From Candidatus Dormiibacterota bacterium (lineage in GTDB: Bacteria > Chloroflexota > Dormibacteria > Aeolococcales > Aeolococcaceae): a DNA stretch of 64,000 nt. The stretch is from the NCBI GenBank assembly GCA_963718525.1, contig OY970355.1, forward strand, positions 3,136,001 to 3,200,000. Reading direction: 5' to 3'. Positions 2,875 to 34,296 of this stretch are shown here, piece after piece (positions within the stretch are counted from its first letter, which is position 1; each line of letters starts with the position of its first letter). The notes under the pieces were generated by a model. The model was given only the letters and a program-made list of their open reading frames with translations. It was not told where the DNA came from and searched no databases. A program made the translations under genes and the position numbers.

Positions 2875-2881
2875 CTCTCGA

Positions 2882-2922
2882 CAACACAAAGCGGCCCGGC
2901 CGGGGCGAACCCGACCGGGCCG
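2882..2922 (-). terminator. Intrinsic terminator between convergent glgX and the DUF4386-like gene
   Basis: 13-bp GC stem (2892-2904 / 2910-2922; the single mismatch becomes G-U on the minus strand), followed on the minus strand by CTTTGTGTTGT. Confidence 0.7.
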
Positions 2923-2962
2923 ATGCGGTCCCACGGTGACCTTATCCGGCCACCGTTCGCGC

Positions 2963-7454: not shown

Positions 7455-10400
7455 CTATGGGACTCGTGTGGCCGGTGGAGCGTTGACGACGTCGTCGAAC
7501 ACAGCCCACATGGCCGCATACCTCCCACGCCTGGCGAGCAGGTCGTCATGGGTTCCGACCTCGACCACCTGCCCGCTGTGCAGCACCACCACGCGATCGG
7601 CAGCTTTCGCGGTCTGCAGCCGGTGAGCGATCACGACTGTGGTGCGACCCTCCGACACCTCGTGCATTGCTGCAGCGACGCGCGCCTCGGTCGCGAGGTC
7701 GAGGTTAGACGTCGCCTCGTCGAGCAACAGCAATACCGGATCAACCAGCTCGGCGCGGGCCAGAGCGATGAGCTGGCGCTGGCCCGACGAGAGCGAGCGG
7801 CCCCGCTCGGTCAGCTCGTGGTGATACCCACCCGCAAGCCGCGCGATGAACTCATGCGCGCCGACGGCTCGGGCCGCGGCCTCCACATGCGCGTCACTCG
7901 CCTCCGGGCGCCCATACGCGATGTTGTCCCGGATCGTGCCCGAGAACAGGAACGCCTCCTGCGGCACGTACCCGAGTTGGAGACGGAACTCATGCAGGTC
8001 GAGGGCGCGGAGGTCGTGACCATCGACGGTGACGCTCCCTTCATCGGGATCGTAGAAGCGAGCGAGAAGCTTCATCACAGTTGATTTGCCTGCGCCCGTC
8101 TCGCCGACGAGTGCGACAGTCTCCCCCGCCTCGATGCGCAGGTCGATGCCACGCAATGCCTCAGGCGGCTTGCGCCATGCGGCGTCTCGCGACTGCAGCA
8201 GCCGCGGATCCTGGGGTCCCCGCCGGTCGACTGGGCGGGCTCCGTCGAACCCGGGCCGGATGACCGGGACGGGGTAGGAGAACCGAACGTGATTGAGGTT
8301 GAGGTCGCCGTGGAGGCGACCCGTGTGCTCGGGGAGCGCCGGGCTGGGCGTGAGCGTCTCGAGCTGCATCAGCTCGGCGATGCGGCTCACCGAGACGCGT
8401 GTCTGCTGCCATGCATCGAAGACCTGTGAGAGCTGCTGTATCGGCGAGAAGAACAGATCGATGTACAGAAGGAACGCGATCAGCGCGCCTGGGGTGAGAT
8501 TCCCCGTCTGGATCAGGCGCGCGCCGACGCCGAGCACGATCGCGTCCGCGACAGCAGCCATGAACTGGACGAATGGGAAGTACGTCGCCACCAGTCGCTG
8601 AGCCGCGACACGAGTCTCGAGGTACGAGCGCCCGAGACGATGAAATTGGTGCATCGCGGCGCCTTCATGAACGAACGCCTGCAACTCGCGAACACCCGAC
8701 AGGCTCTCCTGGAAATCGGCGTTGACGATTGCGATGCGCTCGCGAGAAATGCTGTACAGGCGGGCCGCTTTCTGCCGGAAGATGACCGTCGCAATCGCGA
8801 GTGGGATCACCACCGAGAGCGTCGACAGTCCGAGCTCGGTATTGATGAGCACCAGCGCCACGCCGACGCCGACGAAGGTGACGATCGAGACCAGTGCGGA
8901 GAGCAGGCCGTTCTCGATCAGCGATTCGAACTGGTCGACGTCGGTCGTCATCCGGGTCATGATCCGGCCCGCCATCTCGCGCTCGTAGTAGTCGAGCGAC
9001 AGGCGTTGCAGCTGAGCCCAGATGCGGATCCGGAGGGACAGCATGATTCGCTGCGCGGTTCGCCCCGTGACGAACGTCTCGCCGATCTCGTCGATGAGGT
9101 CGACGAGCGTGACCAGCAGGAACACGCCGGCAGCGGCGAAGAGGACGACGGCCGACCCCCGCGAGACACCGTTGTCGAGTCCCGTCTTCACCAGGATGGG
9201 GCCTGCAAGGGTCATCAACCCGTCGATGATCACCAGCACGAGTCCGAGCAGCAGCGGGCGGCGGAATTCGCGCAGGAGCCGGAGAAGGCTGAAGCGCTTG
9301 TCCGGCCTCGATTCGCGCTCGAGGTCGACGACGGCGACGTCGCGAACCGGAGGCAGCCGCGCAACCCGCTCGAGCAACTCTGGGGTCGGAGCCAGGTTGA
9401 GCCGCCATCCCGACCCTCCCCCGCCGAGGCCGGGACCGAGGCTCGGTGCGCCAACTGTGCGGTTGGCAGTACGGCTGCCGGAACGCTGCCCGTCACCGGC
9501 CCACGCTGCCGCCGTGGTCCCGTCGGCGCCCACCCTCGACGCCAGCGTGGCGAGGGCTTCGATGAAGTCGCCGATCGCCGCACGATCCTGCTCCTCGAGT
9601 TCCTGACACGAGGGTCCGGTAGAGCCCGCTGCGGGCCATGAGCTGGTCATGGGTGCCCTGGTCCGCCACCAGGCCGGCGTCGAGCACCACGATCCTGTCG
9701 GCGAGATGCAAGGTTGACTGGCGGTGGGCGATCAGCAGCGTGGTGCGATCCGCCAGCACGTCGCGAAGACCGTGGTGTACGGCTGCCTCGATGCGCGCGT
9801 CGATCGCGCTCGTGGCGTCGTCGAGAATGAGGATGCGCGGGTTGTAGAGGATCGCACGCGCGAGCGCGATCCTCTGCCGCTGACCTCCTGAGAGCGTCAG
9901 CCCACGCTCACCGATGGCGGTGTCGTACCCGCGCGGGAGCTCGTTGATGAAGTCGTGTGCCTGGGCGACACGAGCCGCCGCCTCGACCTCGTCGTCAGTG
10001 GCGTCCGGACGGCCGTACGCGATGTTCGCCCGAACCAAGTCCGAGAAGAGAAAGCTGTCCTCGAAGACGACGCCGAGCTGCTGACGCAGCGATCCCAGCT
10101 TCACATGGCGCACGTCGTGGCCGTCAACGAACACGGTCCCCTCGGTTGGGTCGTAGAAGCGCGGCACGAGCATCGCCAGCGTCGACTTGCCACTCCCGCT
10201 CGGACCCACGATGGCAACGCGCTCACCTGGCGCAATGTGCAGATCGATCCCCCGGAGGACCGGGTCACCGTCACCGTAGCGGAAGTGGACATTTGAGAAC
10301 CGGATGTCCCCGCGGAGTTCGGGGAGGTCGACGGCATCGGCTGCGTCGGCGATGGCTGGCGGCAGATCGAGGAGCTGGAAGATGCGTTCGATCCCAGCCC

Positions 10401-11322
10401 GAGCCTGCTGGCCGATGGTCAGGACTCCCGCCAGCTGCCGCGCTGGTGCCATGAGCTGGGTCAGGTAGGTCGAGAACGCCAGGAACGTCCCCAGGGTGAT
10501 CTGGTGGTGCAGGGCCAGCCACCCGCCGAGCGCAAGGATGGCCACCTGCGCGAGCAGCGGGATCAACTCCAGCAGCGGCTGGTACCGCGACTGAAGGCGC
10601 ACCGCGCGCATCTGCGACCCGTAGACGCGCTTGGCCGCTGCAGCGACGCGTTCGACCTCGCGCTGCTCCTGGCCGAACGCCTTGACGACGCGCACCCCGT
10701 TCAGATCCTCATCGACAATCTGGACGAGGTCGCCCTCGCGCTGTTGCCCGTCCCACGTCGCCGGGAAGATCCGCCAGCGCATCCGGTAGGAGACGATCAG
10801 CAGGCTCGGCGCCACCACGAAGCTCACGAGCGCCAGCAGCGGCGACAGGTAGAGCATGACTCCGAGCGAGAGCAGGAGCAGCAGGATGTTGCTGCTCATG
10901 ATCGGGAAGAAGCTCAGGAGGCCCTGCACCAGCGTGGAGTCGGAGTTCGCGCGCGCGACCAGCTGGCCGGTCGGCATCCGGCCAAGGTTGTCGAAGTCCA
11001 GCGCCTGGAGGTGGTCGTGCATGTCGTTGCGCAGGTCGAACTGGACCTCGAGCGCCACGCGGCCGCCACGATAGCGGCGGACGTAGGCGAAGACCAGGCT
11101 CGCGGCTGCGAGCGCGACCAGCAGGAGAAGCCAGGGCCACAGCGCCGACGTCCTGGTGAGAATGACGCCGTCGACGATCTGACGGGCCACCAGCGGCACC
11201 GCCGTCTGGCAGACGCTGCCAAGCACCGCGGCTCCCACCGACAGCACGACATCACGTCGGTGCCGGAGCATGTAGCCCCAGAGACGCCGGACCCAACCGG
11301 GCTTGGCGGGAGCGTCGCTCAA
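7455..11322 (-). CDS. Fused double-module (TMD-NBD-TMD-NBD) ABC exporter, split by a +1 frameshift near 9600
   Basis: Two complete TMD+NBD halves (GPSGSGKST/LSGGQ/LILDD and GETGAGKST/LSSGQ/LLLDE). Removing one A from TCAGGAACTCGAG joins the frames as ...TLVSGLEEQD... Confidence 0.88.
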
Positions 11323-21268: not shown

Positions 21269-21594
21269 ACGCCGGCGGTCCCGTTGGCATCGCGATAGTT
21301 GGCGCCGACCAGCTCCTCCTCCATCGCCTGCCACTCGCGGATCTGCTGGACCTCGTCGTGGTACGCCGGGCCCATCTCCTCGAGGATGCGCAACGTCTCC
21401 GCGGCCTCGGTCTCGCTCACCCGGCTCAGCGCGAAGCCCACGTGCACGAGCACGTACTCGCCGGGCTCGGTGGCGTCCTCACCGACCAGCAGCGACGTGT
21501 TGATACGGCGGTGCACGCCGCCGAGCTCGACCTTGCCATACATACGGTCTGCGTCGACATACTCGACGAGACGGGCGGGAATCGCTAGGCACAT
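21265..21594 (-). CDS. hypC: Hydrogenase maturation chaperone
   Basis: MCLAIP N-terminus, YVLVHVGFAL. Confidence 0.97.
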   Translation of the reverse strand: MCLAIPARLVEYVDADRMYGKVELGGVHRRINTSLLVGEDATEPGEYVLVHVGFALSRVSETEAAETLRILEEMGPAYHDEVQQIREWQAMEEELVGANYRDANGTAGV

Positions 21595-22262
21595 GCCGGC
21601 TCTCCTTCAAGTGCACGTTGCACCAACTCGGTGAGGAGGTGATAGAGGGTCATCTGCACCTCCTGAATCCGGTGGATGCTGCTGGATCGAACGACGAAGC
21701 AGTGATCACTGACCTGTTCGCGAGCAAGCCGTCCCCCGTCGTAGCCACAGATCGCCACTGTGTACATGCCGCGACGACGTGCTTCGCCCAGCCCGCGAAC
21801 GAGGTTCTCGGAATTCCCGCTCGTCGACACGGCGACCACCACATCGTCGGTGCGTCCCAGCGCGATGATCTGACGCACGAAGACGTCGCCGAAGCCGACG
21901 TCATTGCCGATCCCCGTGACCACGGCGACATCGTTGGTCAGGCAGAGCGCCGGAATCGGACGGTGATTGCCCGACGGCACGAGCATCTCGGTCACCATGT
22001 CCGCGGCCGACGTGGCGCTGCCGCCGTTGCCGAGTCCCAGCAACCGTCCGCCTCGCTCGAATGCAGCGGCCATCCTCTGCGCAGCGACAAGGATCTCGTC
22101 ACCGAACTCGTCGAGCAACTCCAGACGGAGGCGGTTGCTCTCGGCTGATTTCTCGAGCGGAGCGCGAGCAAGCTCCAGGACGAGTTCAGCACCCGCCGCC
22201 GGTTGCGGGCTCAACATCGGATACAGGAGTTGCGAGAACGGATCGCGCCCGGATTCGGTCAC
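21585..22262 (-). CDS. GmhA-like SIS domain protein 1
   Basis: GNGGS, GND, STSGNS and RIQE motifs present; the DAQH His is absent (SAAD). Confidence 0.88.
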   Translation of the reverse strand: MTESGRDPFSQLLYPMLSPQPAAGAELVLELARAPLEKSAESNRLRLELLDEFGDEILVAAQRMAAAFERGGRLLGLGNGGSATSAADMVTEMLVPSGNHRPIPALCLTNDVAVVTGIGNDVGFGDVFVRQIIALGRTDDVVVAVSTSGNSENLVRGLGEARRRGMYTVAICGYDGGRLAREQVSDHCFVVRSSSIHRIQEVQMTLYHLLTELVQRALEGEPACA

Positions 22263-22486
22263 GAGCCGACCTCCACCGCCGCGGCGCGCTGGAGCGCCAC
22301 ACCGCCGTGGCAGAGCAGCACGTCACCGACCGCCACGCCGCCGAGCAGGTCGATGCCGATCTCGACCTCGGCATCGTCGATCGTGCAGCGCGCGATGCCC
22401 GCCGCCGTATCGACCTCCGTAACCACCACGCTCAGAAGCTGATCCGAACACGTGATGCAGACCTCGTCGTGGCACTCGGCACTCAT
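22259..22486 (-). CDS. HypC/HupF-like protein with a non-canonical N-terminus
   Basis: VAVGDVLLCHGGVAL HypC-type C-terminus; N-terminus MSAECHDEVCITCSD instead of MC. Confidence 0.82.
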   Translation of the reverse strand: MSAECHDEVCITCSDQLLSVVVTEVDTAAGIARCTIDDAEVEIGIDLLGGVAVGDVLLCHGGVALQRAAAVEVGS

Positions 22487-23118
22487 GAGACGTCTCCGAT
22501 GCCGCGGTGGTTGAGGACGATATGCACGAGCTCCCAGAGCATGTGGTACGTCGCCAGGTGCAATTCGTGCGCGCTGCTCCGGTCGCTCCCGCGCACGTGG
22601 AAGACGTAATCGGCCTGTGCCGTACCGTCGCCGCTGTCAGCCGATGTGAGCGCGACGGTGAGCATGCCCTGCGCGGTGCCCGCCTCGAGCCCCCTCGTGA
22701 TCGATGGGTGCGCCGGCGCATGCGCGAACGCCAGCGCGATATCGCCGGATCGGCCGAGAATGCGCAATTGGTGCGCGTAGACTTCCACAGCCGCGTTCCC
22801 CTGCAGGATCCCGGTGACCGTCGCCATGTCGTTGGTCAGCGACAGCGCGGGCAGTGCACGGCATCCCGGCAGCACGGGATGGACGAACTCCACCGAATTG
22901 TGCTGCGCGTCCGTCGCGTGCGCTCCCGAACCGAACACCAGCAGGGTTCCGCCGGCGAAGAAGCGGTCTGCCATCGCCGCGGCACAACCCGCGATGTCCT
23001 GCGCGTAACGGTCGAAATACTCTTCGCCCGAACGATTCGACGCCGCGACGCGCTCTGCAAGAAACGCACGACCGGTGGCGAGCATCGCGTCGCGGTCGGG
23101 TCGTACCTGCACCGTCAT
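22483..23118 (-). CDS. GmhA-like SIS domain protein 2
   Basis: ATDAQHNSVEF, ALPALSLTND and ELHLATYH present; GNGGS, STSGNS and RIQE absent. Confidence 0.85.
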   Translation of the reverse strand: MTVQVRPDRDAMLATGRAFLAERVAASNRSGEEYFDRYAQDIAGCAAAMADRFFAGGTLLVFGSGAHATDAQHNSVEFVHPVLPGCRALPALSLTNDMATVTGILQGNAAVEVYAHQLRILGRSGDIALAFAHAPAHPSITRGLEAGTAQGMLTVALTSADSGDGTAQADYVFHVRGSDRSSAHELHLATYHMLWELVHIVLNHRGIGDVS

Positions 23119-23119
23119 G

Positions 23120-25483
23120 TCACCTCACCTCGCGGGTCTGTGATGCCGCGACCAGCGCCTGGCCGAGGCTGATGCCACCGTCGTTGGCCGGGACCTGTTG
23201 ATTGGTATAGACGAAACGATCCCGCTCGCGCAACAGGTGCTCCACTCGAGACAGGAGCAGGGCATTCTGAAAGACGCCACCACTCAATGCGATGCGGTTC
23301 ACGCCCCATGCCGCAGCGAGTCGCACGCAGACGGCTGCGATGCCGCGTGCCAGGCTTTCGTGGAACATCGCCGCGAGCTCCTCCACCGCCCTGCCGCGCT
23401 GCCGCTCGCGGAAAAGGGTCCGAACCAGCGCGACGGTGTCGAGCACGACCGGATCGCCGCCGTGTCCGAAGTCGACGACGTCGAACGACGACGGGTCACC
23501 CGCCGACGATGCCAGCGCCTCGAGGCGCATCGCAGCTTCGGCCTCGAAGGTCGACTGATGGGCAACCCCGATCAGGCTGGCGACGGCGTCGAACAGGCGG
23601 CCCGCGCTGGTGGTGATCGGGGCGGTCTGTGAGGTGGCAAGTCGTGACACGAGCCGCCACTGGCGCTCATCCGGCGCACCCGACGCGCCGCCGAACCAGC
23701 CGGGCGCTCTGTCTCCGAGCTCGCCGGCCGCCGCCAGGTACGCGATCGCCATGCGCCAGCCTTCGCGGGCACAGGCGTCACCGCCTGGCTGGCGAACCGC
23801 CGCGATATGCCCGACACGGCGGTACGTGCGCTCGTCGCACAGGAGAAACTCACCGCCCCAGATGGACTGATCGGGCCCGAACCCGACACCGTCGAAAGCA
23901 ACTCCAAGGACCGAGCCGCGCAGGCCGTGCTCGGCGAGCACGCTGGCAATGTGCGCGTGGTGATGCTGGACGCGGATGGCGCGAGCACCCGAGTCCCACC
24001 ACCGCTCAGCCAGGCGGCTGGACGCGTAGTCGGGATGCAGGTCGGCCGCGACGGTGGCGGGGTGTGCACGGAACAGTCGAAGGTACGTCCGCAGCGCCTC
24101 GTCCTGGTGCTCCAGCGTCCGCGGGCTGTCGAGATCACCGATATGAGGGCCGGTGAACGCGTTGCCGCCATGCAGAATGCAGAAGGTGTTCTTCAGGTGC
24201 GCGCCCAAGGCGAGGACCTGCCCGCCCGGCGACTCGAGAGGTACTGGAAGCGGGCAGTAGCCGCGAGCGCGCCGGATCATGTGCGTGGTTCCGTCGACAA
24301 CGCGCACGACGGAGTCGTCATAGCGCGCGTAGATGTCCCGGTCGTGCAGGAGGAAGTGGTCGGCAATGCCACCGAGCCGCCGCAATGCTTCGCCGTTGTC
24401 CTTGGCGATCGGCTCCTCGCTGACGTTGCCACTGGTCATGACCAGCATCCCGCCGGTGGCATGCAGCAGGAGGTGATGCAGCGGCGTGTACGGGAGCATG
24501 ACGCCAAGCTCATCCAGCCCCGGAGCCACCGGGCCGGCGACAGAGACCGCGTCACGATCGCGCCGGCGCCGGAGCAGGACGATCGGCCTCGCCGACCCCT
24601 CGAGGAGAGCACCCTCGACGCCACTGACGACGCACAGGCTCCGGGCCGCCGCAATATCCGGGCACATCACGGCAAACGGCTTCGCCGGCCGGTGCTTGCG
24701 GTCCCTCAGGCGCATGACCGTGGCACCGTCGCGTGCGTCGCAGCAAAGCTGGAAGCCGCCCAATCCCTTCAGCGCGATGATCTCGCCGCGGGCAATCGCC
24801 GCCCCCGCGAGCTCGATCGCGTCCCCGGTAACCTCGGTCCCGCACGAGTCCGTGCACCAGAGGCGTGGGCCGCAGACGGGGCATGCGTTCGGCTGGGCAT
24901 GAAAGCGTCGATCCGCGGGGTCCTCGTATTCGCGCCTGCATGCGTCGCACATCGCGAAGTGGCGCATGGTCGTCAGCGGACGGTCGTACGGGATGTCCTC
25001 GATGATCGTGAAGCGGGGACCGCAATTGGTGCAGTTGGTGAACGGGTAGCCATGGCGTCGATTGCCGGCGTCCAGGATGTCGGCGTGGCACTCGGAGCAT
25101 GTCGCGGCATCGGGTGCAAGCGGCTGATAGTCGCCGTCGATCGCACGGCTCTCCACGATGCGGAACCCCTCATCTCCGACCGCTTCGAGCTTGGTCGCCT
25201 CGACGGCATCGATCCGAGCGAGGCGTGGCGCATCCTCGCGCAACGCGACGGCAAAGCACTCGAGCGCGCGCCGATCACCCTCGACCTCGATGATCACGGC
25301 GCCCGACGTGTTGCAGACCGAGCCGCTGAGCTCGAGACGGGTCGCGAGGTTCCAGACGAACGGACGGAAGCCCACCCCTTGAACCACACCATGCACGGCG
25401 AACCCCAGCCGCTCACGCGCGCAACCAGCGGATGCACCCGCATCCGCTGCGTGGGCCGTGGTGGGCTGGGTCGCGACGCTCAT
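23120..25483 (-). CDS. hypF: Hydrogenase maturation carbamoyltransferase
   Basis: GVVQGVGFRP acylphosphatase, CxxC zinc fingers, QHHHAH, FDGVG, PANDGGISLGQ. Confidence 0.98.
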   Translation of the reverse strand: MSVATQPTTAHAADAGASAGCARERLGFAVHGVVQGVGFRPFVWNLATRLELSGSVCNTSGAVIIEVEGDRRALECFAVALREDAPRLARIDAVEATKLEAVGDEGFRIVESRAIDGDYQPLAPDAATCSECHADILDAGNRRHGYPFTNCTNCGPRFTIIEDIPYDRPLTTMRHFAMCDACRREYEDPADRRFHAQPNACPVCGPRLWCTDSCGTEVTGDAIELAGAAIARGEIIALKGLGGFQLCCDARDGATVMRLRDRKHRPAKPFAVMCPDIAAARSLCVVSGVEGALLEGSARPIVLLRRRRDRDAVSVAGPVAPGLDELGVMLPYTPLHHLLLHATGGMLVMTSGNVSEEPIAKDNGEALRRLGGIADHFLLHDRDIYARYDDSVVRVVDGTTHMIRRARGYCPLPVPLESPGGQVLALGAHLKNTFCILHGGNAFTGPHIGDLDSPRTLEHQDEALRTYLRLFRAHPATVAADLHPDYASSRLAERWWDSGARAIRVQHHHAHIASVLAEHGLRGSVLGVAFDGVGFGPDQSIWGGEFLLCDERTYRRVGHIAAVRQPGGDACAREGWRMAIAYLAAAGELGDRAPGWFGGASGAPDERQWRLVSRLATSQTAPITTSAGRLFDAVASLIGVAHQSTFEAEAAMRLEALASSAGDPSSFDVVDFGHGGDPVVLDTVALVRTLFRERQRGRAVEELAAMFHESLARGIAAVCVRLAAAWGVNRIALSGGVFQNALLLSRVEHLLRERDRFVYTNQQVPANDGGISLGQALVAASQTREVR

Positions 25484-25487
25484 CGCC

Positions 25488-25682
25488 TCACGCTGCGCGC
25501 AGATGATCCGCCGTCGAGCTGAAGCGCTCCTCGAGGAAGCCGGTCGCCAGGCTCACCGCCATCTGCACCTCGTCACGTGCCGCGAACTTCTTCGCCGCCT
25601 CGACCAGTTCATCGAAACGCTCCTTGCCCGCGCGAGTTCCGAGCACGTATCCGATCCCGAAGATCACAAGTTTCTCAAGCAT
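25488..25682 (-). CDS. Small membrane-anchored protein (YtxH-like GYVLG.RAG motif)
   Basis: MLEKLVIFGIGYVLGTRAGKERFDEL...; 64 aa, lies in the operon between yceI and hypF. Confidence 0.75.
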   Translation of the reverse strand: MLEKLVIFGIGYVLGTRAGKERFDELVEAAKKFAARDEVQMAVSLATGFLEERFSSTADHLRAA

Positions 25683-25710
25683 GCCATTCCACTCCAAAAT
25701 GCCCTAAATG

Positions 25711-26223
25711 CTATGACTTCCCTACGGCCACGACGTGGACCTGCAGGTCAACCTCCGGTTCCACCTTCAGGATGATCAGACGCGGCGGGTCGATCCCAAA
25801 GTCCTTGACGTTGATCACCTGCTGCCCATCGATGGTCAAGGTGTTTCCGCTTGCCGTCAGTGTCACGTCCCCGGTGATGTCCTTGGTAATGCCGTGCAGG
25901 GTGAGCCGCGCCGTCACACGATACCGGCCGTCACCGTCGAGCGCCTCACCGTGGGTGACCACCGCGCTGATCGACGGGTATCGCGACGTGTCGAAGCGGC
26001 GCCGCATCTCCCGGTCCTGGAGACCGTTTCCCGACTTGATCGCCTCCACCGGCAACGTCAACTCCGCGCGGTACGGCTGATCGAGACGCGGCTTTCCCTG
26101 TTCGTCAAGCTCGCACTCGATGAACCCGGTGAGCGCGTTCGCAGTGATGTGCGACGGATGGAGGTTGACTCGGAGGCCGACCTGGACCGTCGTTTGAGCT
26201 GTGTCGACTTCAAATCGAGCCAC
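25711..26223 (-). CDS. YceI-like polyisoprenoid-binding protein, no signal peptide
   Basis: IKSGNGLQD..M....FDTSRYP, LTLHGITK and DFGI..P YceI motifs; N-terminus starts directly with a beta-strand. Confidence 0.88.
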   Translation of the reverse strand: MARFEVDTAQTTVQVGLRVNLHPSHITANALTGFIECELDEQGKPRLDQPYRAELTLPVEAIKSGNGLQDREMRRRFDTSRYPSISAVVTHGEALDGDGRYRVTARLTLHGITKDITGDVTLTASGNTLTIDGQQVINVKDFGIDPPRLIILKVEPEVDLQVHVVAVGKS

Positions 26224-26241
26224 AACGCGACCTCGTGCTTT

Positions 26242-26373
26242 CTACATCGACCGGATCTTGAGATACCGTTGAATGTCCTTCGAGTTGAGCACGGCACCGA
26301 CGAAGGCACCGAGGATCAACCACTGCGCAATCGTGCGCAGCGCACTCTTCTGACCGCCGAGCATGAGCCCCAT
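26242..26373 (-). CDS. 43-aa single-TM microprotein (DUF6893-like)
   Basis: Below the ORF-track cutoff; translated by hand as MGLMLGGQKSALRTIAQWLILGAFVGAVLNSKDIQRYLKIRSM. GGAGGA RBS; ATG directly follows the hypA TAG. Confidence 0.85.
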   Translation of the reverse strand: MGLMLGGQKSALRTIAQWLILGAFVGAVLNSKDIQRYLKIRSM

Positions 26374-26736
26374 CTAGATTCCTCCAGGTATGCGCGCTGA
26401 TGTGACCGGCGCCGTACTGGCGCCGTTGTGGCCGGCGTGTTCATGAGCGTGCGGTGGCTCGACCACCGGTGCCCCGGGGCGGCGAAGGATCGTGGGCGGA
26501 TCCCCGTCGAGCTCGACCTCATCGACGAGGACCTCGATCCCCGGGACGGCGACGCATCGCAGCGACGCACCTTCGCAGACCGTGCCTTCGGCGAGGAGCT
26601 GAAAGCCGAACTCGAGACTGTCGGGGACGATGCGCTGCTCGTCGCCGATTCGCACGACGATGCGAGTCACCGGTCGATCCCCCGCCATGTCGATTGCGAC
26701 GGTCATGATGCCTTCCGCGAGGCCGAGCTCGTGCAT
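26374..26736 (-). CDS. hypA: HypA-like nickel chaperone lacking the zinc-binding domain
   Basis: MHELGLAEGI Ni motif, IVPDSLEFGF, GTVCEGA; no CxxC pairs; His-rich tail HAHEHAGH; TGATG coupling to the protease gene. Confidence 0.85.
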   Translation of the reverse strand: MHELGLAEGIMTVAIDMAGDRPVTRIVVRIGDEQRIVPDSLEFGFQLLAEGTVCEGASLRCVAVPGIEVLVDEVELDGDPPTILRRPGAPVVEPPHAHEHAGHNGASTAPVTSARIPGGI

Positions 26737-27254
26737 CAGGATGCACTCGTGGCGGGAGCCAGGCGCGCAAGCAGCTGCTCGACAATCGCGACAGCCTCGG
26801 GCACCGCGCCGGCGACCGGCTCGCTGAGTCCCATGCACCCTTCGTTCTCCGGTCCAAAGGTGAGCGGTTCGCAACCGACGACCGTGACGTTGCGCGGACG
26901 TCCGCCAAGCGCGCGCACCAGGGCGAACACCGAGTCCGGTGTCATCGCGTGCCCCTGGAACGACCCGTCGGCGTGATCCGGCGACGACGGCGTCTCGTCG
27001 CCGTCGAGATCCGGCTGCAGGACGTAGACGGTGCCGGGGCGTTCGCCACGGGGCATGGCGTCCACAAGGATGGTGGCGGCCGGCTCATCCAGCAGAGCAA
27101 ATGCGAGGTCGAACCCGCGAATGCCGTAATCGGCGACGCGAACGCTCTCCGCATGCTGCCGAGACGCGAGCTGCTGCGCCACCTCGACACCGAAGCCATC
27201 GTCACCAAGGAAGATGTTGCCGATTCCCGCAACCAGGATCGTGCCCTCGCTCAT
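26736..27254 (-). CDS. Hydrogenase maturation endopeptidase (HupD/HybD family)
   Basis: LVAGIGNIFLGDDGFG, DYGIRG, GHAMTP, VVGCEP. Confidence 0.93.
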   Translation of the reverse strand: MSEGTILVAGIGNIFLGDDGFGVEVAQQLASRQHAESVRVADYGIRGFDLAFALLDEPAATILVDAMPRGERPGTVYVLQPDLDGDETPSSPDHADGSFQGHAMTPDSVFALVRALGGRPRNVTVVGCEPLTFGPENEGCMGLSEPVAGAVPEAVAIVEQLLARLAPATSAS

Positions 27255-27574
27255 CGCTCCTCCTCCGCGGGTGGGAGCCGCTCGAGGTCGTCGAGCCCGA
27301 AGAAGAAGCGGTGTCCCGGCTGTCGGAGCGCCCCGAGATCCTTGCCAGGGTCGTCGTCGACGAGCAACGCAACGTGGATGACATCCTCGTAGTCGCGTTC
27401 GATCGACTCGACGACGGCGGTGCGCCCGTGCAGCGCGATGTCCATGATGTCGGCGCGACGGCGCGGGCTGATCCGCACGCGGTCGCCGCGATGCAGACGC
27501 CCATCGCCCCAGCGGACCGATTCGGTGACCGAGCCCGCTTCCGGGTCCCATGCGCCGAAGTCGAAGCCGTTCAC
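27251..27574 (-). CDS. Conserved group 1h hydrogenase-associated protein (HhaC C-terminal-like)
   Basis: GDRVRISPRRRADIMD...DDDPG.DLG...PGHRFFF; overlaps both neighbours by 4 bp. Confidence 0.75.
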   Translation of the reverse strand: MNGFDFGAWDPEAGSVTESVRWGDGRLHRGDRVRISPRRRADIMDIALHGRTAVVESIERDYEDVIHVALLVDDDPGKDLGALRQPGHRFFFGLDDLERLPPAEEER

Positions 27575-28635
27575 CTGCGGTCTCCTATGACAGGCTTGAT
27601 TTCGCGAATGGTGCCGTGCAACCGCATCATGTCGTCGCCGGTGAGTGCTTCGGTGCGATCCAGGAGGGCCCGCGCACGTCCGTCGGCAGCGCGCATCTCT
27701 GCCTTCTCGTCATCGGTCAGGGCCAGGATTCGCAGGCTCAAGATCTCGTCGATCTCGGTGGCATCGAAGAGATCGCCCGAGGATTCCGGTGCGACCTGGG
27801 GATGGTCTTCAAGGATGATCGGTGAGGCGAGGATCGTGTCCGAGTCCGCCGGGTCCCCAACCAGCACCGGCCAGAGCCCGAGGTTCCGGCACGCCGCGGC
27901 GGCATCGACAGCATCCGCCGGCGGGTCGGCGAGTGAGAGCCATTCACCCTCCTCCGCGATGAGGATGGCATGCGTCGAGACCAGGGAGGAACGCAGCGCG
28001 CGTTCACGGTCATGAGTGCCATCCACCCTGAACGCACTCGCGTTGCGCACCACGACGCTCACCCGGACAAGATCGTTTCCGGCCGGTTCTGCAGTCACCG
28101 TCACCTCGGCCGCCAATGGCTGACGCTCACGCTGCAGGACGCCCGCGACGAGGCCGCCTGCATCGAGGAGCGGTTCCACCTCTTCGTGCGCGGGCCAGAT
28201 GTGATCGCTGACCACCTCGCGCTCGAGGAGCGACGGCAGGGCATGGGTGCCGCAGTCGATCGAAATCTCCGTCGCCTCTTCCCACCCACGGTGGTTGACG
28301 CCGGCGACGCGCAGCTCGGCCACTTCCTCGAGCCGCCCAACTGCTTCCGCGTCGAGCGTGTCGCCCGGAGGGTCGAGCTTCGCGACGGTTCTGGTCACCA
28401 GCTGCAGAAACCGGACGCGCACGGTGACCCGTGTGGCATCGGAGCCGCGCAACAGACACTGCGTCTGGGCAGTCCACGGATCGGTGCCACCCGATGCTTC
28501 GCTCCAGGCGCGCGGATGCACCCCGCCGAACGTCCAGCGCACCCGATTCTTCACCGACGATGGCCTGTACGGGTACAGGATGTACCCCTCATAGAGCGTG
28601 GCCGCGACGAGGCGGTCGAGCGTGCTCTGGCTCAC
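27571..28635 (-). CDS. Group 1h hydrogenase-associated protein (HhaC-like)
   Basis: LYEGYILYPYRPSS.KN..RWTFG and SPIILEDHPQVAPES.GDLFDATEIDEILSLR motifs. Confidence 0.8.
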   Translation of the reverse strand: MSQSTLDRLVAATLYEGYILYPYRPSSVKNRVRWTFGGVHPRAWSEASGGTDPWTAQTQCLLRGSDATRVTVRVRFLQLVTRTVAKLDPPGDTLDAEAVGRLEEVAELRVAGVNHRGWEEATEISIDCGTHALPSLLEREVVSDHIWPAHEEVEPLLDAGGLVAGVLQRERQPLAAEVTVTAEPAGNDLVRVSVVVRNASAFRVDGTHDRERALRSSLVSTHAILIAEEGEWLSLADPPADAVDAAAACRNLGLWPVLVGDPADSDTILASPIILEDHPQVAPESSGDLFDATEIDEILSLRILALTDDEKAEMRAADGRARALLDRTEALTGDDMMRLHGTIREIKPVIGDRR

Positions 28636-28637
28636 TC

Positions 28638-29294
28638 CTATGCGCTCCCCATCGGGGCAGAGCCGTCGGTGCCGGCAAGGAGGCGGGCCAGCGCCTCGTC
28701 CCAACCGGGCACTCCCGAGTGCGCCTTGTAGCGGTTGAGGCGATCGACGGTGTCACGGCGCAGGCAGAGCCACGCACTATCCGGGTCGTGCTCCTGCATT
28801 AGTGCGCGCCACGTGGATACGGGGAGCCGGAACGCCGCCTCCTTCGACCACGGAATCGGCGCAACCTGCAGGCTTCCATCCTCGTCGCGCCAGAAGATCG
28901 TCCCGCTGAACTGGAACATCAGGGGAACATCGCCCTCTTCGAGCGCGAAGAAGTACTTGCCGGCGGTGATGGTGAGATCGTGGGTGCACGGGACCGGGAC
29001 GATGGTTTCCGTCGACCCCACAAAGCCGACGACATCAGTGCTCGCGTGTGTCCAGAGCATCGTCTTCAGCGTCGTGCCCCAGCGCGAAGGCTGCCCAAAG
29101 AGATCGAGCAACGCCTCCTGCTCGCCGGGCGCGTACGTCCGTCGCGTCGCCTGGACCATGATCTGGCAGCGAAGGGATATCGAATCGATGCGGTGACCGC
29201 TGCGCTCGTGGATCCGCACCCGGAAGTTCAGTATGGGAATCAGCGTGTCCGGCTCGGCCCCCGCCGAGACGACCTCGAGGTCCAGATCAGGCAT
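28638..29294 (-). CDS. Group 1h hydrogenase-associated protein (HhaB/DUF6084-like)
   Basis: LRCQI....RR.Y, DLFG.PSRWG.TL..MLWTH, FQFSGTIF, IPWSKEA. Confidence 0.8.
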   Translation of the reverse strand: MPDLDLEVVSAGAEPDTLIPILNFRVRIHERSGHRIDSISLRCQIMVQATRRTYAPGEQEALLDLFGQPSRWGTTLKTMLWTHASTDVVGFVGSTETIVPVPCTHDLTITAGKYFFALEEGDVPLMFQFSGTIFWRDEDGSLQVAPIPWSKEAAFRLPVSTWRALMQEHDPDSAWLCLRRDTVDRLNRYKAHSGVPGWDEALARLLAGTDGSAPMGSA

Positions 29295-29916
29295 GGGTGC
29301 GGGCCATTTCCCTGGCTCCGCTGCGCAGTTCGCTGAAGAAGGTGTTGATGCGGTCCCAGACTTCCTGGCCACCGCTCAAACCTCGCCAGCTGATGCGGAT
29401 GAGTCCCACCAGCTCGAAGCATCGATCGATCGGCGCGATGTAGTGGTCGCGAGCCCCGCTGACGCGGTTGATCAGGAGCGCCTCGACGTCGGGTTCGAGG
29501 CTGCTCAGCACCGGGTTGTCAGCGACCAGCTCGTCCCACCCCTCGAGGCTGAGCATCGACTCCGTGGCCCCCGCGGGGCTCGGATAGAAAGCACGGACCC
29601 CCTCGATACTCGTGCTGGTGTGCAGGAATGCCATGTTCACCGGAATCGACAGCGACTCCCACTGCATGTCATTCATCGCGAAGTCGGTCAGGTACAGCAG
29701 CCGCCTCGAGACGCGACGGTAGCGCTTCTCCGCGTCGGACGGGAACAGCATCGCACAGGGCGTGCAGCTGCAGTGGATCTGCCGCGTCGACGGCTCGAAG
29801 AGATGCTCGTGATGTGGGTGGGGCGAGAGCTCGGCGCTGCAGAGCTCGCAGCGTTCCGCGGGGACGCGCTCGCGGATGAGGCTGCGCAGGCCGGGCAGCC
29901 GAGCGGCCGTGCTCAT
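29287..29916 (-). CDS. Group 1h hydrogenase-associated protein (HhaA/DUF5947-like)
   Basis: ERCELC, H.HL, CSCTPC, FYPSPAGATES, PIDRCFELVG, WRGLSGG. Confidence 0.82.
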   Translation of the reverse strand: MSTAARLPGLRSLIRERVPAERCELCSAELSPHPHHEHLFEPSTRQIHCSCTPCAMLFPSDAEKRYRRVSRRLLYLTDFAMNDMQWESLSIPVNMAFLHTSTSIEGVRAFYPSPAGATESMLSLEGWDELVADNPVLSSLEPDVEALLINRVSGARDHYIAPIDRCFELVGLIRISWRGLSGGQEVWDRINTFFSELRSGAREMARTHA

Positions 29917-30848
29917 GCGAGTCGCGCTGGGATCGCGATGCGCAGGATGCCCGACTCCTCGAGGAGTGGACGCGGCTCCATGCGGAAATCGGAACCGATG
30001 CCGGCACCGGCGCGCCGGATGTCGTACCGCGAGCCACAGCCGTCGCACACGAGCGCGGCTCCGTCGAGCACGGCATGCTCCATCGCCCCTTCGCACGCCG
30101 GGCAGTTGGCCACATACGCGTAGAACACGTTGCCCGTCCGCGCGATCAGAACCGCATCGCCGTCGGCCCTGGTCTTCAAGACGCTGCCGTTGTCGATATG
30201 TGTGCCACGAGCCGCGAGCGTGATCCACTCACCGGAGGGCGCGACAGCCGGACGCATGACCGGGGTGGGAGGCGCAGACGCGACGACGGGGAGGGCCACG
30301 AGACCGGCGATCTGCGGGGGTCCGGGTGCCGGAGTCTCGTCGGGCTGGACGACCTCGATTGCGGCGACATCGGGAGCCGCCTCGTAGATCGCCTTCTCGA
30401 CGGCGAGCTTGAGCGTGACCATCGACGACGGGCACCCCTGGCAGTGGCCCTCCAGCCGAATCTGCACGGTGTCGCCCGCGACACCGATCAGTTCGACACC
30501 GCCTCCGTGGGAACGCATATACGGTCGCACCGACTCGAGCGCGCTCTCGACGCGGCTTCGGAGATCCGTCGGGTGCAGACCGTGGAGCAGCAGGACGCCG
30601 CGGATGATGTCGTCGGCCGCCATTCGCTCGAGCAAGCGATCGGTCGCGGGCGCACCCCGAGGGCCGAGGGCGTCGAGCATCCGCGACAGCGCCTCGCCGT
30701 AAAGATCGAGCACGGTGGAGAGCAGCTCCTCGACCAGCGCGCGCAACGCAGGGTCGGGGAGCTGCTGCAGCTCCCCGACCAGCGTGTCGACATGGGCGAG
30801 ACGTTTCTGGAGCTCGCGCTCCTCAACAATACGAGCTGGCGCTGCCAT
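29913..30848 (-). CDS. NifU-domain / Rieske-like Fe-S protein (HhyE-like)
   Basis: LLLHGLHP, VRPYMRSHGGGV, GHCQGCPSS (NifU-C), then CPAC...CDGC Rieske-like domain. Confidence 0.88.
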   Translation of the reverse strand: MAAPARIVEERELQKRLAHVDTLVGELQQLPDPALRALVEELLSTVLDLYGEALSRMLDALGPRGAPATDRLLERMAADDIIRGVLLLHGLHPTDLRSRVESALESVRPYMRSHGGGVELIGVAGDTVQIRLEGHCQGCPSSMVTLKLAVEKAIYEAAPDVAAIEVVQPDETPAPGPPQIAGLVALPVVASAPPTPVMRPAVAPSGEWITLAARGTHIDNGSVLKTRADGDAVLIARTGNVFYAYVANCPACEGAMEHAVLDGAALVCDGCGSRYDIRRAGAGIGSDFRMEPRPLLEESGILRIAIPARLA

Positions 30849-32636
30849 TCATGGTTGCGGGCCGAAGTTCGGCGAGTGCCGAGTCTCCAGCACCTTGCCG
30901 TTGCCGAGGTACATGTGCACACCGCACGGCAGGCAGGGATCGAAGCTCCTCACCGCTCGCATGATGTCGATGCCCTTGAAATTGTCCGGCCCGTTCTCCT
31001 CGAAGATCGGCGTGTTCTGCACCGAGTCTTCGTACGGTCCCGGGGTGCCGTACATATCGCGGGGTGTCGCATTCCACGGCGTCGGCGGGTACGGATGGTA
31101 GTTCGCGATCTTGCCGTCGCGGATGACCACGTGGTGCGAGAGCACACCGCGGACGGCCTCATGGAAACCGCAGCCGATCGCCTCGTCGGGCACGGTGAAC
31201 GGGGTGAACGTGTCGGTTCGCCCCGCATTCAGCTCGGCGAACGCCTTGTCCAGGAAATGAAGGGCCGCGGCTGCCGCGTATGCCTGGAAGTACGTGCGCG
31301 CACGGTCGCGTTCAATGGCGTTGCTCCACTTGGGAACCTTCCACTCGAACTCGACTTCCGGCTTGGAAGCGGTTTTCGGCAGGTAGATCTTGGTGCTGTT
31401 GCCCGTGGCCTTGAGGTACCCGACATCGACGATACCCGCGAGCGACGTCGCCAGCAGACGAGCGAACGCGCCGCCGCCGGTGTCCATGGCGAGGTGCTCG
31501 CCCTCATGCAGGTATCTGGGGCACATGACCCAACTGTAGTTCTTGTCGAAGTCGCGCTTGCCCGGCTTCGGGATGGTCGTCTGGTTCCACGGATGGCGCT
31601 TGTCGATCGGGGCGCCCAATGGGTCCTTCTCGACGAACACCTCGCCGTCGTCCGCCCAGTCCTCGTAAAACGAATGCCCGAGCAGGATGCGGATGTTGCG
31701 GTTGATCTCGACCAGGTCTGTGGTCACCAGCTTGCCGTCGACGACGACCCCCGGGGTCACAAACATCGCCCGGCCCCAGTTGGTCATGTGCCGGTACGTG
31801 TAGTCGCACTCGTCAGGATCGTTGAACGAGCCCCAGCACACGGTGTCCATGCGCCGCCGGCCGACCTCCTCGTACCCGGGAAGCGCCTCATAGAAGAAAT
31901 CGAAGATGTCGTCGTGCAGCGGCACAACCTTCTTCATGAACTCCACGTAGCGCATCAGGCGAACGAGGTAATCCGAGAAGAGCTGCACCGTGGGCACCGT
32001 GCCGACACCACCGGGATAGAGCGTCGATGGGTGGACGTGACGTCCCTCCATCAAGCAGAACATCTCGCGGGTGTACCGGCTGACATGCAGAGTCTCCCGG
32101 TAGAACTCCCCGGTGAAGGGATTCAGCGCGCGCATGATCTCGGCGATCGTCCGGTACCCGTGGTCCGCCGCGTGTGGTGCGGGGGTGTTCTCAGCACGCG
32201 CGAGGACTGACGGGTTGGTCTCCTTCACCATCTGCTCGCAGAAGTCGACCATCAGCAGGTTGTCCTGGAAGATGTTGTGGTCGAACATGTACTCCGCGGC
32301 CTCGCCGAGGTTGACGATCCACTCCGCCATCGCCGGCGGCCGGATGCCGAATGCCATGTTCTGCGCGTACGTCGCGCAGGTCGCGTGGTTGTCGCCGCAG
32401 ATCCCGCAGATCCGGCTCGTGATGAAGTGCGCGTCGCGCGGATCCTTGCCCTTCATGAAGATGCTGTAGCCGCGGAAGATCGACGACGTGCTCCTGCAGT
32501 CGGCGACGACGCGGTTGGCAAAGTCGATCTTCGTGAAGATACCGAGGCTGCCGACGATCCTGGTGATCGGGTCCCAGGACACGTCGACAAGGACCGGATC
32601 CTTGGTCCGGGTTGGGTCCTTCTCAACGACTGTCAT
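30849..32636 (-). CDS. hhyL: Group 1h (high-affinity) [NiFe]-hydrogenase large subunit
   Basis: WDPITRIVGSLG; L1 motif TSRICGICGDNH; L2 motif SFDPCLPCGVH with a cleavable C-terminal tail. Confidence 0.97.
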   Translation of the reverse strand: MTVVEKDPTRTKDPVLVDVSWDPITRIVGSLGIFTKIDFANRVVADCRSTSSIFRGYSIFMKGKDPRDAHFITSRICGICGDNHATCATYAQNMAFGIRPPAMAEWIVNLGEAAEYMFDHNIFQDNLLMVDFCEQMVKETNPSVLARAENTPAPHAADHGYRTIAEIMRALNPFTGEFYRETLHVSRYTREMFCLMEGRHVHPSTLYPGGVGTVPTVQLFSDYLVRLMRYVEFMKKVVPLHDDIFDFFYEALPGYEEVGRRRMDTVCWGSFNDPDECDYTYRHMTNWGRAMFVTPGVVVDGKLVTTDLVEINRNIRILLGHSFYEDWADDGEVFVEKDPLGAPIDKRHPWNQTTIPKPGKRDFDKNYSWVMCPRYLHEGEHLAMDTGGGAFARLLATSLAGIVDVGYLKATGNSTKIYLPKTASKPEVEFEWKVPKWSNAIERDRARTYFQAYAAAAALHFLDKAFAELNAGRTDTFTPFTVPDEAIGCGFHEAVRGVLSHHVVIRDGKIANYHPYPPTPWNATPRDMYGTPGPYEDSVQNTPIFEENGPDNFKGIDIMRAVRSFDPCLPCGVHMYLGNGKVLETRHSPNFGPQP

Positions 32637-32649
32637 TGCTCAGTTCTCC

Positions 32650-33714
32650 TCAGTACGTGGTCGGCCTGTAGCCGGTGGTGAGCTCGGGCCGCGTGTGCCG
32701 CCATCTGGGCTCTTTGTTGACAGTCGTGTTGGTGACCTTGCGCAATGCGCGGATTGCGGTGCCGTAGACACCGATGACACCTGTCGAGAGGTGCGCCCCC
32801 GGCGGCTCGTCCATGAACGGCATGAACTTGTCCGGGAAACCGGGCATGGTGCAGCCGATGCAGATGCCGCCCACGTTCGGGCAACCACCGATGCCGGCCA
32901 TCCAGCCGCGTTTGGGGACGTTGCAGTTGACGACAGGCCCCCAGCAGCCGAGCTTGACCAGGCATCGCGGCGAGTTGTAGTCGGCGGCGAAATCGCCCTG
33001 CTCGTATGACGCGGCACGGTCGCAGCCGTCGTGGACGGTGTCCCCGAAGAGCCATTTGGGGCGCAGTTGATCGTCGAGCGGGATGATCGGTGCGAGGCCG
33101 GCAACCATGTACAGCAGGTAGAGCACCGTCTCCATGAAGTTGTCCGGTTGCACCGGGCACCCAGGGACGTTGACGATGGGCAAACCAGCCTTCGACTTCC
33201 AGTCCCAGCCGAGGTAGTCGGCCAGGCCCATGGCGCCGGTGGGATTGCCCTGCATGGCGTGAATCCCGCCGTACGTGGCGCAGGTTCCGCAGGCGACAAC
33301 GGCGAGGGCTCTGGGGGCGAGGCGATCGATCCACTCGCAGGTCGTGATCGGCTGACCCGTCGCCGCGTCGGTGCCGACCGCGGCCCAGTACCCCTCTTTC
33401 TTGATGGTCTCGTTGGGAATCGACCCCTCGATCACCAGCACGAACGGGTCAAGGTCACCGTTGGCGGCGGCGTGCCACGACTTGATGAACTCCTCCCCGT
33501 TTTCGTACGCGAGCACGGGGTTGTAGAGGTGGACCTTGGGCAGGCCTGGAATGGCTCCGAGGAGCACGTCCTCGATGCTTGGTTGGGTCGCTGCAGTGAT
33601 CGATACCGAGTCACCGTCGCACCCGAGTCCCGCGGTGATCCACACGATGTGGAGATCAGAGACCGGCGAGTCCCTCTGGGTCTTGCGCCCATACGGAACG
33701 GTATCCGTGGCCAT
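32650..33714 (-). CDS. hhyS: Group 1h [NiFe]-hydrogenase small subunit
   Basis: WITAGLGCDGDSVS (Cys-x2-Asp), GTCATYGGI, PGCP, HDGCDR, CIGCTMPGFPD; no Tat signal. Confidence 0.97.
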   Translation of the reverse strand: MATDTVPYGRKTQRDSPVSDLHIVWITAGLGCDGDSVSITAATQPSIEDVLLGAIPGLPKVHLYNPVLAYENGEEFIKSWHAAANGDLDPFVLVIEGSIPNETIKKEGYWAAVGTDAATGQPITTCEWIDRLAPRALAVVACGTCATYGGIHAMQGNPTGAMGLADYLGWDWKSKAGLPIVNVPGCPVQPDNFMETVLYLLYMVAGLAPIIPLDDQLRPKWLFGDTVHDGCDRAASYEQGDFAADYNSPRCLVKLGCWGPVVNCNVPKRGWMAGIGGCPNVGGICIGCTMPGFPDKFMPFMDEPPGAHLSTGVIGVYGTAIRALRKVTNTTVNKEPRWRHTRPELTTGYRPTTY

Positions 33715-33834: not shown

Positions 33835-34296
33835 CTATCCGCGTTGCGCGGGTATTGACAGGTGGCTTGCGCTGTTCGGTGCGTTCAAGGAACGCAAGCT
33901 CGGTCGGTGCTGTGGCTCATGGTCGGCGACATCCCGGACCTCGCCGACCTTGCGCATGTCGAGGAACTCCTGGGCGACCGCTCGAAGTCGCTCGACCGGC
34001 GCGACGTATGCGTCGATCATGTCGAGGCCCGGTTCGCTCAACTCGTATCGGCGGCGGCTCCTGCCGCCCGCGGTGCGTTCCCAGGTGGAGTGGAGCAGGC
34101 CATCCGCCTCCATCGTGTTGAGTGACCGGTACACGGTGCCCAGGTCGCATTCCACGCCGATCCCGAGGAGCCAATGGTGCAGCTCGTATCCGTAGACGGT
34201 CTGACCGCCAACGAGGTGGGCGAGGATGCACGGACGCAACAACCCGACCGTCAATGCGGCCGGGCGATCGGGCCGGGGGTCCCCGCTCACGTCCAC
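33835..34296 (-). CDS. PadR family transcriptional regulator
   Basis: LRPCILAHL...YGYEL...GTVYRSLNTMEADGLL.S.WE....GRSRRRYELS. Confidence 0.9.
   Translation of the reverse strand: MDVSGDPRPDRPAALTVGLLRPCILAHLVGGQTVYGYELHHWLLGIGVECDLGTVYRSLNTMEADGLLHSTWERTAGGRSRRRYELSEPGLDMIDAYVAPVERLRAVAQEFLDMRKVGEVRDVADHEPQHRPSLRSLNAPNSASHLSIPAQRG

Follow-up and report, generated by a model that had tools for sequence, protein, structure and literature searches.

Dedicated protein parts for quinone access have been described or proposed for several soluble enzymes that oxidise trace gases. CoxG is reported to extract menaquinone for the soluble Mo-CO dehydrogenase (Mo-CODH); as described there, it is a small protein with a hydrophobic cavity that is encoded together with an oxidiser lacking a membrane subunit, carries its own membrane tether and is conserved across Mo-CODHs (PMC12202499). 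Likewise, the cytosolic high-affinity group 2a hydrogenase Huc is described as having a dedicated extra part, HucM, for quinone access (PMC10017518), and small transmembrane helices, HylTM1-5, have been proposed to anchor the cytosolic [NiFe] core of a group 1l hydrogenase and thereby to give it access to quinone (PMC13554262). The title of Greening et al. 2014 terms the mycobacterial enzymes membrane-associated. For the group 1h enzyme, Hhy, no description of a route to quinone was found in the searched literature.

Here we analyse a stretch of 64,000 nucleotides (the window) from contig OY970355.1 of a Dormibacterota genome, in which three small genes lie within a group 1h (Hhy) hydrogenase cluster. 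They encode a 43-residue membrane peptide of the Pfam family DUF6893, a YceI-family barrel without export signal, and a 64-residue protein that resembles YtxH. Our analysis suggests that this trio is very probably a real accessory set with a functional tie to Hhy. More tentatively, and as a possibility that falls short of being probable, the YceI protein may serve Hhy as an optional accessory at the membrane and, in a CoxG-like manner, handle an isoprenoid lipid there, for which menaquinone is the most plausible candidate.

Among the systems described, CoxG has the job that is proposed here for YceI. However, CoxG has the SRPBCC fold, to which the YceI barrel is unrelated; CoxG carries its tether itself, whereas any tether at the present locus would be provided by separate peptides; and while CoxG is conserved, YceI is optional for Hhy and a putative shuttle. 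HylTM1-5 are, like the 43-residue peptide, small transmembrane helices encoded with a hydrogenase, but they belong to group 1l and number five against one here, the likeness being one of description only. HucM reportedly forms a scaffold with a hydrophobic chamber, whereas the candidates in the window are a monomer-sized barrel and micropeptides; sequence similarity is not expected. With respect to the barrel itself, YceI-family structures have been solved with octaprenyl ligands, and BcnA is reported to bind menaquinone with a very low Ki and Neisseria GNA1030 to bind ubiquinone-8 (PMC5350466). In the searched literature, with supplements outside the search, we found no paper on an association of YceI with hydrogenases and none using the term DUF6893.

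Three small genes between hypA and hypF

All three open reading frames (ORFs) lie co-oriented and close-packed on the minus strand between hypA and hypF (Table 1), as described in an initial annotation of the window. The hypA stop abuts the start of the 43-residue gene, and the following gaps measure 18 nt to YceI, 28 nt to the ATG of the 64-residue gene and 4 nt to hypF. Across Dormibacterota loci, the ratio of nonsynonymous to synonymous polymorphism (pN/pS) is 0.23 for the 43-residue gene (n=23), 0.22 for YceI (n=22) and 0.15 for the 64-residue gene (n=21); all three are under purifying selection and are not chance ORFs.

The 43-residue peptide is a member of DUF6893 (PF21833), a family of unknown function to which the group 1h context is added here, and it is the single match above cut-off in the whole genome; NCBIfam holds no family for it. 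It contains one hydrophobic helix (maximum Kyte-Doolittle hydropathy over 15 residues 2.12), followed by the C-terminal motif R-Y-x-x-x-R-x-M, which ends at the stop and in which R36, Y37, R41 and M43 are invariant in 27/27 sequences (alignment A2). ORF, helix and motif are all present as stated in the initial annotation, which had recorded a single-pass membrane protein ending in DIQRYLKIRSM. Peptides of this family, 33-45 residues in length, are often missed by gene callers. In Eremiobacterota and Acidobacteriota longer forms of 76-89 residues occur (L048:9715-9969 (+), L057:9736-9999 (+), L146:7641-7892 (+), L148:11277-11546 (-)). The Eremiobacterota forms carry the C-terminal motif twice per protein and are followed by two tandem YceI genes, and those of Acidobacteriota consist of a transmembrane segment and a linker, then a single motif.

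For the YceI protein, residues 4-166 align to positions 1-150 of the Pfam profile (PF04264). Since an in-frame TAG is located 18 nt upstream of the GTG start, no longer N-terminus is possible, which rules out an alternative start adding a signal peptide. The N-terminus contains no hydrophobic stretch, and the first strand begins at residue 2 in the AlphaFold2 model; the absence of a signal peptide is thus borne out. In contrast, the implication that this absence is unusual did not hold. When 1.84 billion representatives were searched with the protein, 1995 matches were obtained at E<=0.001 and 282 at 1e-10; among the best 150 of these, 123 are 155-200 residues long and mostly aligned from residue 1-6, so that members of this branch of the family generally have no leader. 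The AlphaFold2 model, based on a 27-sequence alignment (pLDDT 87.4, pTM 0.81), predicts a standard eight-stranded lipocalin-like barrel. Accordingly, the top 21 Foldseek matches at E<=0.001 are all YceI-family structures, with TM scores of 0.79-0.84 and 18-24% identity to BcnA (5ixh), TT1927b (1wub), E. coli YceI (1y0g) and others. Matches of the START/SRPBCC type reached TM 0.19-0.24, so the SRPBCC fold is not indicated. The protein therefore shares Pfam family and barrel with the known members, BcnB (5ixg) included, but differs from the solved ones in its low identity, in the missing export signal and in having its gene within a hydrogenase cluster, immediately behind that of a DUF6893 peptide. 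Of two further YceI genes in the genome, one is canonical, matches more strongly and, judged by eye, seems to lack a leader as well; the other (L002) encodes a hydrophobic N-terminal anchor (hydropathy 2.33).

For the third gene, the ATG at 25682 is the likelier start in comparison with the TTG, since it has GGAG upstream and the Dormibacterota relatives start at the same residues. The 64-residue product has a short, Gly-rich hydrophobic N-terminus, as the initial annotation had indicated, then amphipathic helices; G11, G15 and G19 are invariant in the 19 sequences of alignment A3. No Pfam family was matched at E<=0.01, that of YtxH (PF12732) included, and no NCBIfam family. A language-model atlas gave a feature score of 0.90 to a cluster auto-named YtxH-like, which we take as a lead only. 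The likeness to YtxH-like small proteins lies in size, the Gly-rich hydrophobic N-terminus and the amphipathic helices, and the protein is not filed as a member, given the lack of a Pfam match.

Several further candidates were considered and rejected. The TAG of the 43-residue gene and the YceI GTG 18 nt downstream share a reading frame (26223-26244), as a read-through fusion would need; however, only about half of the related Dormibacterota loci show this frame relation, and Acidimicrobiia lack it, so that the match is taken as chance. Natural DUF6893-YceI fusions were not obtained either, as the long representatives (212-383 residues) could be traced to mis-called starts, tandem YceI or PadR fusions. 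Three soil metatranscriptome runs yielded only short contigs, with 90-95% likeness over 26025-26414; because these come from relatives and DNA carry-over is possible, we do not regard them as evidence of transcription. Prediction of a complex of YceI with the 43- and 64-residue proteins (alignments A1-A3) scored 0.00 in both runs, which counts neither for nor against binding.

Occurrence of the small genes at hydrogenase loci

Relatives of the YceI protein were collected from 185,579 species genomes by a pattern scan, which gave 65 loci with 10-kb flanks. At least one hhy or hyp gene lies within 10 kb in 63 of the 65; HhyS or HhyL is present in 49, and HupD, HypF, HypD or HypE in 62. The relatives are 67-88% identical in Dormibacterota and 29-40% identical in Acidimicrobiia, other Actinomycetota and Eremiobacterota. 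All hhy-linked loci of Dormibacterota (25/25) share the order DUF6893, YceI, 64-residue protein, as do two genomes of Actinomycetota (L091, L092). In Acidimicrobiia, Eremiobacterota and Acidobacteriota, YceI immediately follows DUF6893; in other phyla, the position of the trio adjoins hypC/hypD instead of hypF. The linkage of yceI to hhy operons, suspected from the window, thus recurs in four phyla. A frameshift or stop interrupts the YceI frame in six long-read metagenome-assembled genomes (L060, L064, L065, L066, L067, L072, at about 10001-10515), owing to either assembly error or real decay. Four bins labelled Saccharimonadales or Acidiferrales are probably mislabelled or mixed, as their YceI and HhyL cluster with Dormibacterota (L018, L033, L034) or Eremiobacterota (L050).

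As a pattern scan favours sequences that share peptides with the query, a reverse survey starting from HhyL was run. Identity between the window HhyL and its counterparts in other phyla is 73-82%, and group 1h status was assumed for the match set at this higher identity in three other phylum samples. GTDB places the class Dormibacteria within Chloroflexota, and 151 Chloroflexota genomes of 98 genera were sampled; an HhyL-like match at E<=1e-50 occurred in 22 (unpublished G038 included). A profile of hhy-linked YceI (A1) scored at least 180 bits only in the window genome and in G053, which yielded no HhyL and whose YceI copy lacks a link to hhy; all other genomes stayed at or below 45 bits. Thirteen Chloroflexota loci were examined besides the window, with one unpublished genome and two fragments left out. 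Among 401 Actinomycetota genomes, 61 contained HhyL at E<=1e-100 (unpublished G203, G275 and G303 included), 45 of these at no less than 62% identity (unpublished G173 and G394 included); 40 of the 45 loci were examined, two unpublished genomes and three fragments being left out. With nine candidates scored per genome, A1 matched at E<=1e-12 in 9/401 genomes: three matches lie on the HhyL contig (G151, G214, G480), two on other short contigs, of which one (L093) is an hhy fragment, and four are unlinked. In Acidobacteriota, HhyL 75-82% identical to that of the window was found in 10/201 genomes, and 8 HupD-containing loci were fetched. The hhy-linked YceI of this phylum, 27% identical to the window protein, was missed by A1 at E<=1e-12 and found with a relaxed threshold on the hhy loci; Pfam confirmed YceI in 6/6 ORFs tested (55-81 bits).

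Taken together, YceI is present at 1/14 hhy loci of Chloroflexota (the window included), 3/40 of Actinomycetota and 5/8 of Acidobacteriota, directly after DUF6893 in the three Acidobacteriota loci inspected (L146-L148). A relaxed scan (E<=0.05) gave no further YceI in the other 50 Chloroflexota and Actinomycetota hhy loci. The 64-residue protein travels with YceI: it occurs in 4/4 YceI-bearing loci of the Chloroflexota and Actinomycetota samples and in 1/50 YceI-free ones (L073, a weak match of 15.7 bits). In the pattern scan, it was found in 25/25 hhy-linked Dormibacterota loci, in 27/38 other loci and in 0/5 loci of the Eremiobacterota type, which have two tandem YceI genes. YceI and the 64-residue protein are thus an optional, clade-restricted accessory of Hhy. 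Unlike the latter, DUF6893 occurs in hhy clusters with or without YceI. By means of a hidden Markov model (HMM) built from the peptides found in this analysis, it was detected in 14/14 hhy loci of Chloroflexota, 26/40 of Actinomycetota (26/32 of those with HupD) and 7/8 of Acidobacteriota, as well as in 53/63 hhy-linked loci of the pattern scan. Across four phyla, DUF6893 is a near-constant, near-universal member of group 1h clusters; no peptide of this type was seen by eye in a divergent HhyL clade (62-67% identical; L123-L126, L130).

YceI lineages and PadR fusions

A tree of 194 YceI sequences, built by a quick method with SH-aLRT support only, placed the hhy-linked proteins in separate supported clades, namely Dormibacterota (within which L033 and L034, both unlinked, also fall), Eremiobacterota (with the tandem copies) and Acidimicrobiia, and left a few Actinomycetota proteins unplaced. 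All hhy-linked clades are far from the canonical paralog of the window genome. The window YceI, accordingly, does not group with that paralog and is part of a distant, leaderless subfamily; the single hhy-linked clade that was also looked for was not supported, with the backbone of the tree unresolved. When 77 HhyL sequences were placed in a FastTree tree, clusters with YceI fell into four clades, each with a local support of 100, and the label requires 4 changes compared with a shuffled mean of 25.6, which argues that the association is stable within lineages; L097 and L101 were scored as lacking YceI only owing to cut contigs. The distribution would fit either several gains or frequent losses of YceI in hhy clusters.

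In 18 loci of Acidimicrobiia and other Actinomycetota, the gene transcribed divergently from hhyS codes for a protein of 357-403 residues in which a PadR winged-helix domain is fused to a YceI domain (e.g. L045:1912-2982 (-), L058:1687-2844 (-), L061:1876-3084 (-)). Pfam recognised both domains in 3/3 proteins tested (PadR 48-55 bits, YceI 43-50 bits). In the YceI tree, their YceI domains make up a clade of 18 rows (support 98), nested in a larger one (support 99) to which two PadR-YceI fusion representatives also belong. The fusion is a candidate lipid-sensing regulator of the hydrogenase cluster. Weak matches of the 64-residue HMM (19-37 bits) in or beside fusion ORFs lie in other frames and were treated as spurious (L037-L039, L042, L045, L058 and others, about 1,400-3,300 (-)).

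The fusions raise the question of whether the YceI barrel binds a hydrophobic signal, such as the redox state of the quinone pool or another lipid, and tunes expression or activity of Hhy alone or with PadR. A PadR gene also heads the cluster of the window. However, YceI of the window stands alone as a protein, with its gene 8 kb away from PadR and beside DUF6893 and hyp genes, and stand-alone YceI is accompanied by small membrane-type proteins and not by a DNA-binding domain. Moreover, Acidimicrobiia retain both the fusion and a stand-alone YceI, and the two are therefore not interchangeable. We consider a sensory role of the stand-alone YceI unlikely, and less probable than the lipid-handling accessory suggested above.

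Cluster context and possible roles of the trio

The source genome (3.34 Mb, 66% G+C) is 88.9% complete. On the minus strand, the genes of the cluster run PadR, HhyS, HhyL, HhyE, DUF5947, DUF6084, a 377-residue ORF, a 107-residue ORF, HupD, HypA, the three small genes, HypF, two SIS-domain genes, HypD and HypE, as assigned by Pfam. The N-terminus of HhyS contains no twin-arginine motif, and no match to Ni_hydr_CYTB reached the cut-off in the whole genome, in agreement with the initial annotation, which had noted a HhyS without twin-arginine (Tat) signal and no cytochrome b gene. These traits, together with HhyE, DUF5947 and DUF6084, are those of a group 1h cluster. HhyL ends in a 21-residue tail beyond the DPCxxCxxH motif. 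The PadR gene upstream of hhyS is conserved across Dormibacterota loci, and the two GmhA-like SIS-domain genes between hypF and hypD (21585-23118 (-)) recur in nearly all related hhy loci.

Table 1. Features of the hydrogenase cluster, with positions in the window
Feature	Position	Strand	Basis
PadR-family regulator, first gene of the cluster, without YceI domain	33835-34296	-	Pfam PadR 43.6 bits
HhyS, small subunit	32650-33714	-	Pfam Oxidored_q6 and NiFe_hyd_SSU_C
HhyL, group 1h [NiFe]-hydrogenase large subunit	30849-32636	-	Pfam NiFeSe_Hases 214 bits
Conserved Hhy accessory block	27251-30848	-	Pfam; all members found by tblastn in related loci
HhyE, NifU-like	29913-30848	-	Pfam
DUF5947	29287-30228	-	Pfam
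DUF6084	28638-29372	-	Pfam
377-residue ORF	27571-28704	-	tblastn in related loci
107-residue ORF	27251-27574	-	tblastn in related loci
HupD/HycI-type maturation protease	26736-27254	-	Pfam HycI 42.5 bits
HypA	26374-26736	-	Pfam HypA 37 bits, profile positions 3-69 of 112 only
43-residue single-helix membrane microprotein, DUF6893 (PF21833)	26242-26373	-	Pfam 25.3 bits (cut-off 24.6)
170-residue leaderless YceI-family beta-barrel (lipocalin-like)	25711-26223	-	GTG start, GAGG upstream; Pfam YceI 66.7 bits (gathering score 23.7)
64-residue protein (69 residues from TTG at 25697)	25488-25682	-	ATG at 25682 preceded by GGAG; no Pfam/NCBIfam match
HypF carbamoyltransferase	23120-25483	-	Pfam HypF_C_2, Sua5, zf-HYPF and acylphosphatase domains

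The hupD stop and the hypA start overlap by 1 nt. HypA keeps the N-terminal MHE nickel motif and has a His-rich tail; the CxxC zinc-finger motifs are absent. No HypB was found at the family cut-off in the 88.9%-complete genome (best 28.7 bits against 121.2), and the maturation pathway of this genome is therefore atypical. Both this and the position of the trio between hupD/hypA and hypF, or at hypC/hypD in other phyla, would be consistent with a helper in cofactor insertion, proteolytic processing or membrane-side assembly of Hhy without a part in electron transfer. Most hhy clusters, however, are without YceI and yet have the same hyp set, YceI also occurs in loci where HypA has a normal zinc finger (e.g. 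L036, L058), and no lipid-binding step is known in [NiFe] maturation. A role in maturation thus appears quite improbable, and we return to that of an accessory at the membrane.

In such a mechanism, the DUF6893 peptide would be a general hhy-encoded single-pass membrane peptide, with its invariant basic C-terminus in the cytoplasm, and would most likely dock the otherwise soluble Hhy at the membrane. YceI and the 64-residue protein would be an add-on that Dormibacteria, Eremiobacterota, Acidobacteriota and some Actinomycetota (mainly Acidimicrobiia) either acquired or retained. The barrel is predicted most likely to hold a long isoprenoid lipid, most plausibly respiratory menaquinone; at the cytoplasmic face of the membrane, YceI may hand quinone to the hydrogenase or take quinol from it.

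Apart from the PadR-YceI fusions, several observations weigh against this proposal. YceI is absent from most sampled group 1h clusters, which presumably couple to respiration without it, and the trio resides among maturation genes (hupD, hypA, hypC, hypF) and not beside hhySL. The hydrophobic stretch of the 64-residue protein, about 13-14 residues, is short for a membrane span. The leaderless YceI subfamily also occurs in unrelated contexts (L087-L090 and 11 Acidobacteriota loci, L132-L142). In addition, the close relatives in L033 and L034 (67-69% identical; 9986-10510 (+)) and the YceI of L080 (9996-10532 (-)) lie outside hydrogenase clusters, in genomes in which no HhyL was found. At these three loci, YceI adjoins membrane-protein and transporter-like ORFs.

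The occurrence of leaderless relatives in many unrelated contexts would also agree with a cytoplasmic lipocalin and a YtxH-like general-stress protein that protect membranes or sequester lipids during dormancy without contact to the enzyme. YceI proteins are reported to be stress-induced (PMC5350466), and the atlas assignment of the 64-residue protein as YtxH-like, a lead only, points in the same direction. However, co-expression alone hardly accounts for the fixed place directly after DUF6893, which is found in four phyla and with strongly diverged YceI lineages, and we give such a protective function little probability. The persistence of the L033 and L034 relatives in genomes without a detected HhyL would further allow for mere passenger genes without functional tie to the hydrogenase. 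The hhy/hyp linkage of 63/65 loci, the stable association within four HhyL clades, and purifying selection with tight spacing of the genes speak against this, and we regard it as very improbable. With respect to YceI as a lipid-handling accessory, the initial annotation had gone further and read the trio as a possible, undescribed solution for connecting the hydrogenase with quinone. The recurrent linkage to hhy supports this in part; as YceI is missing from most sampled group 1h clusters, it is not the general route of Hhy to quinone.

It might be speculated that Hhy gains access to quinone by a set of overlooked small proteins, in which DUF6893 would be the universal dock, YceI with its YtxH-like partner a shuttle extracting menaquinone in four soil phyla, as a third convergent solution beside HucM and CoxG, and PadR-YceI a sensor of the same lipid that controls hhy expression. 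We consider this wider picture doubtful as a whole. Group 1h hydrogenases are a main biological sink for atmospheric H2 and sustain life in very poor soils, Dormibacterota included. For these enzymes, the survey yields as candidates a near-universal DUF6893 peptide and an optional barrel of a lipid-binding type with a small partner. Since the barrel is not the general answer, DUF6893 would be the candidate for a general mechanism and YceI for a lineage-specific refinement, while the PadR-YceI fusion is a candidate for a dedicated regulator.

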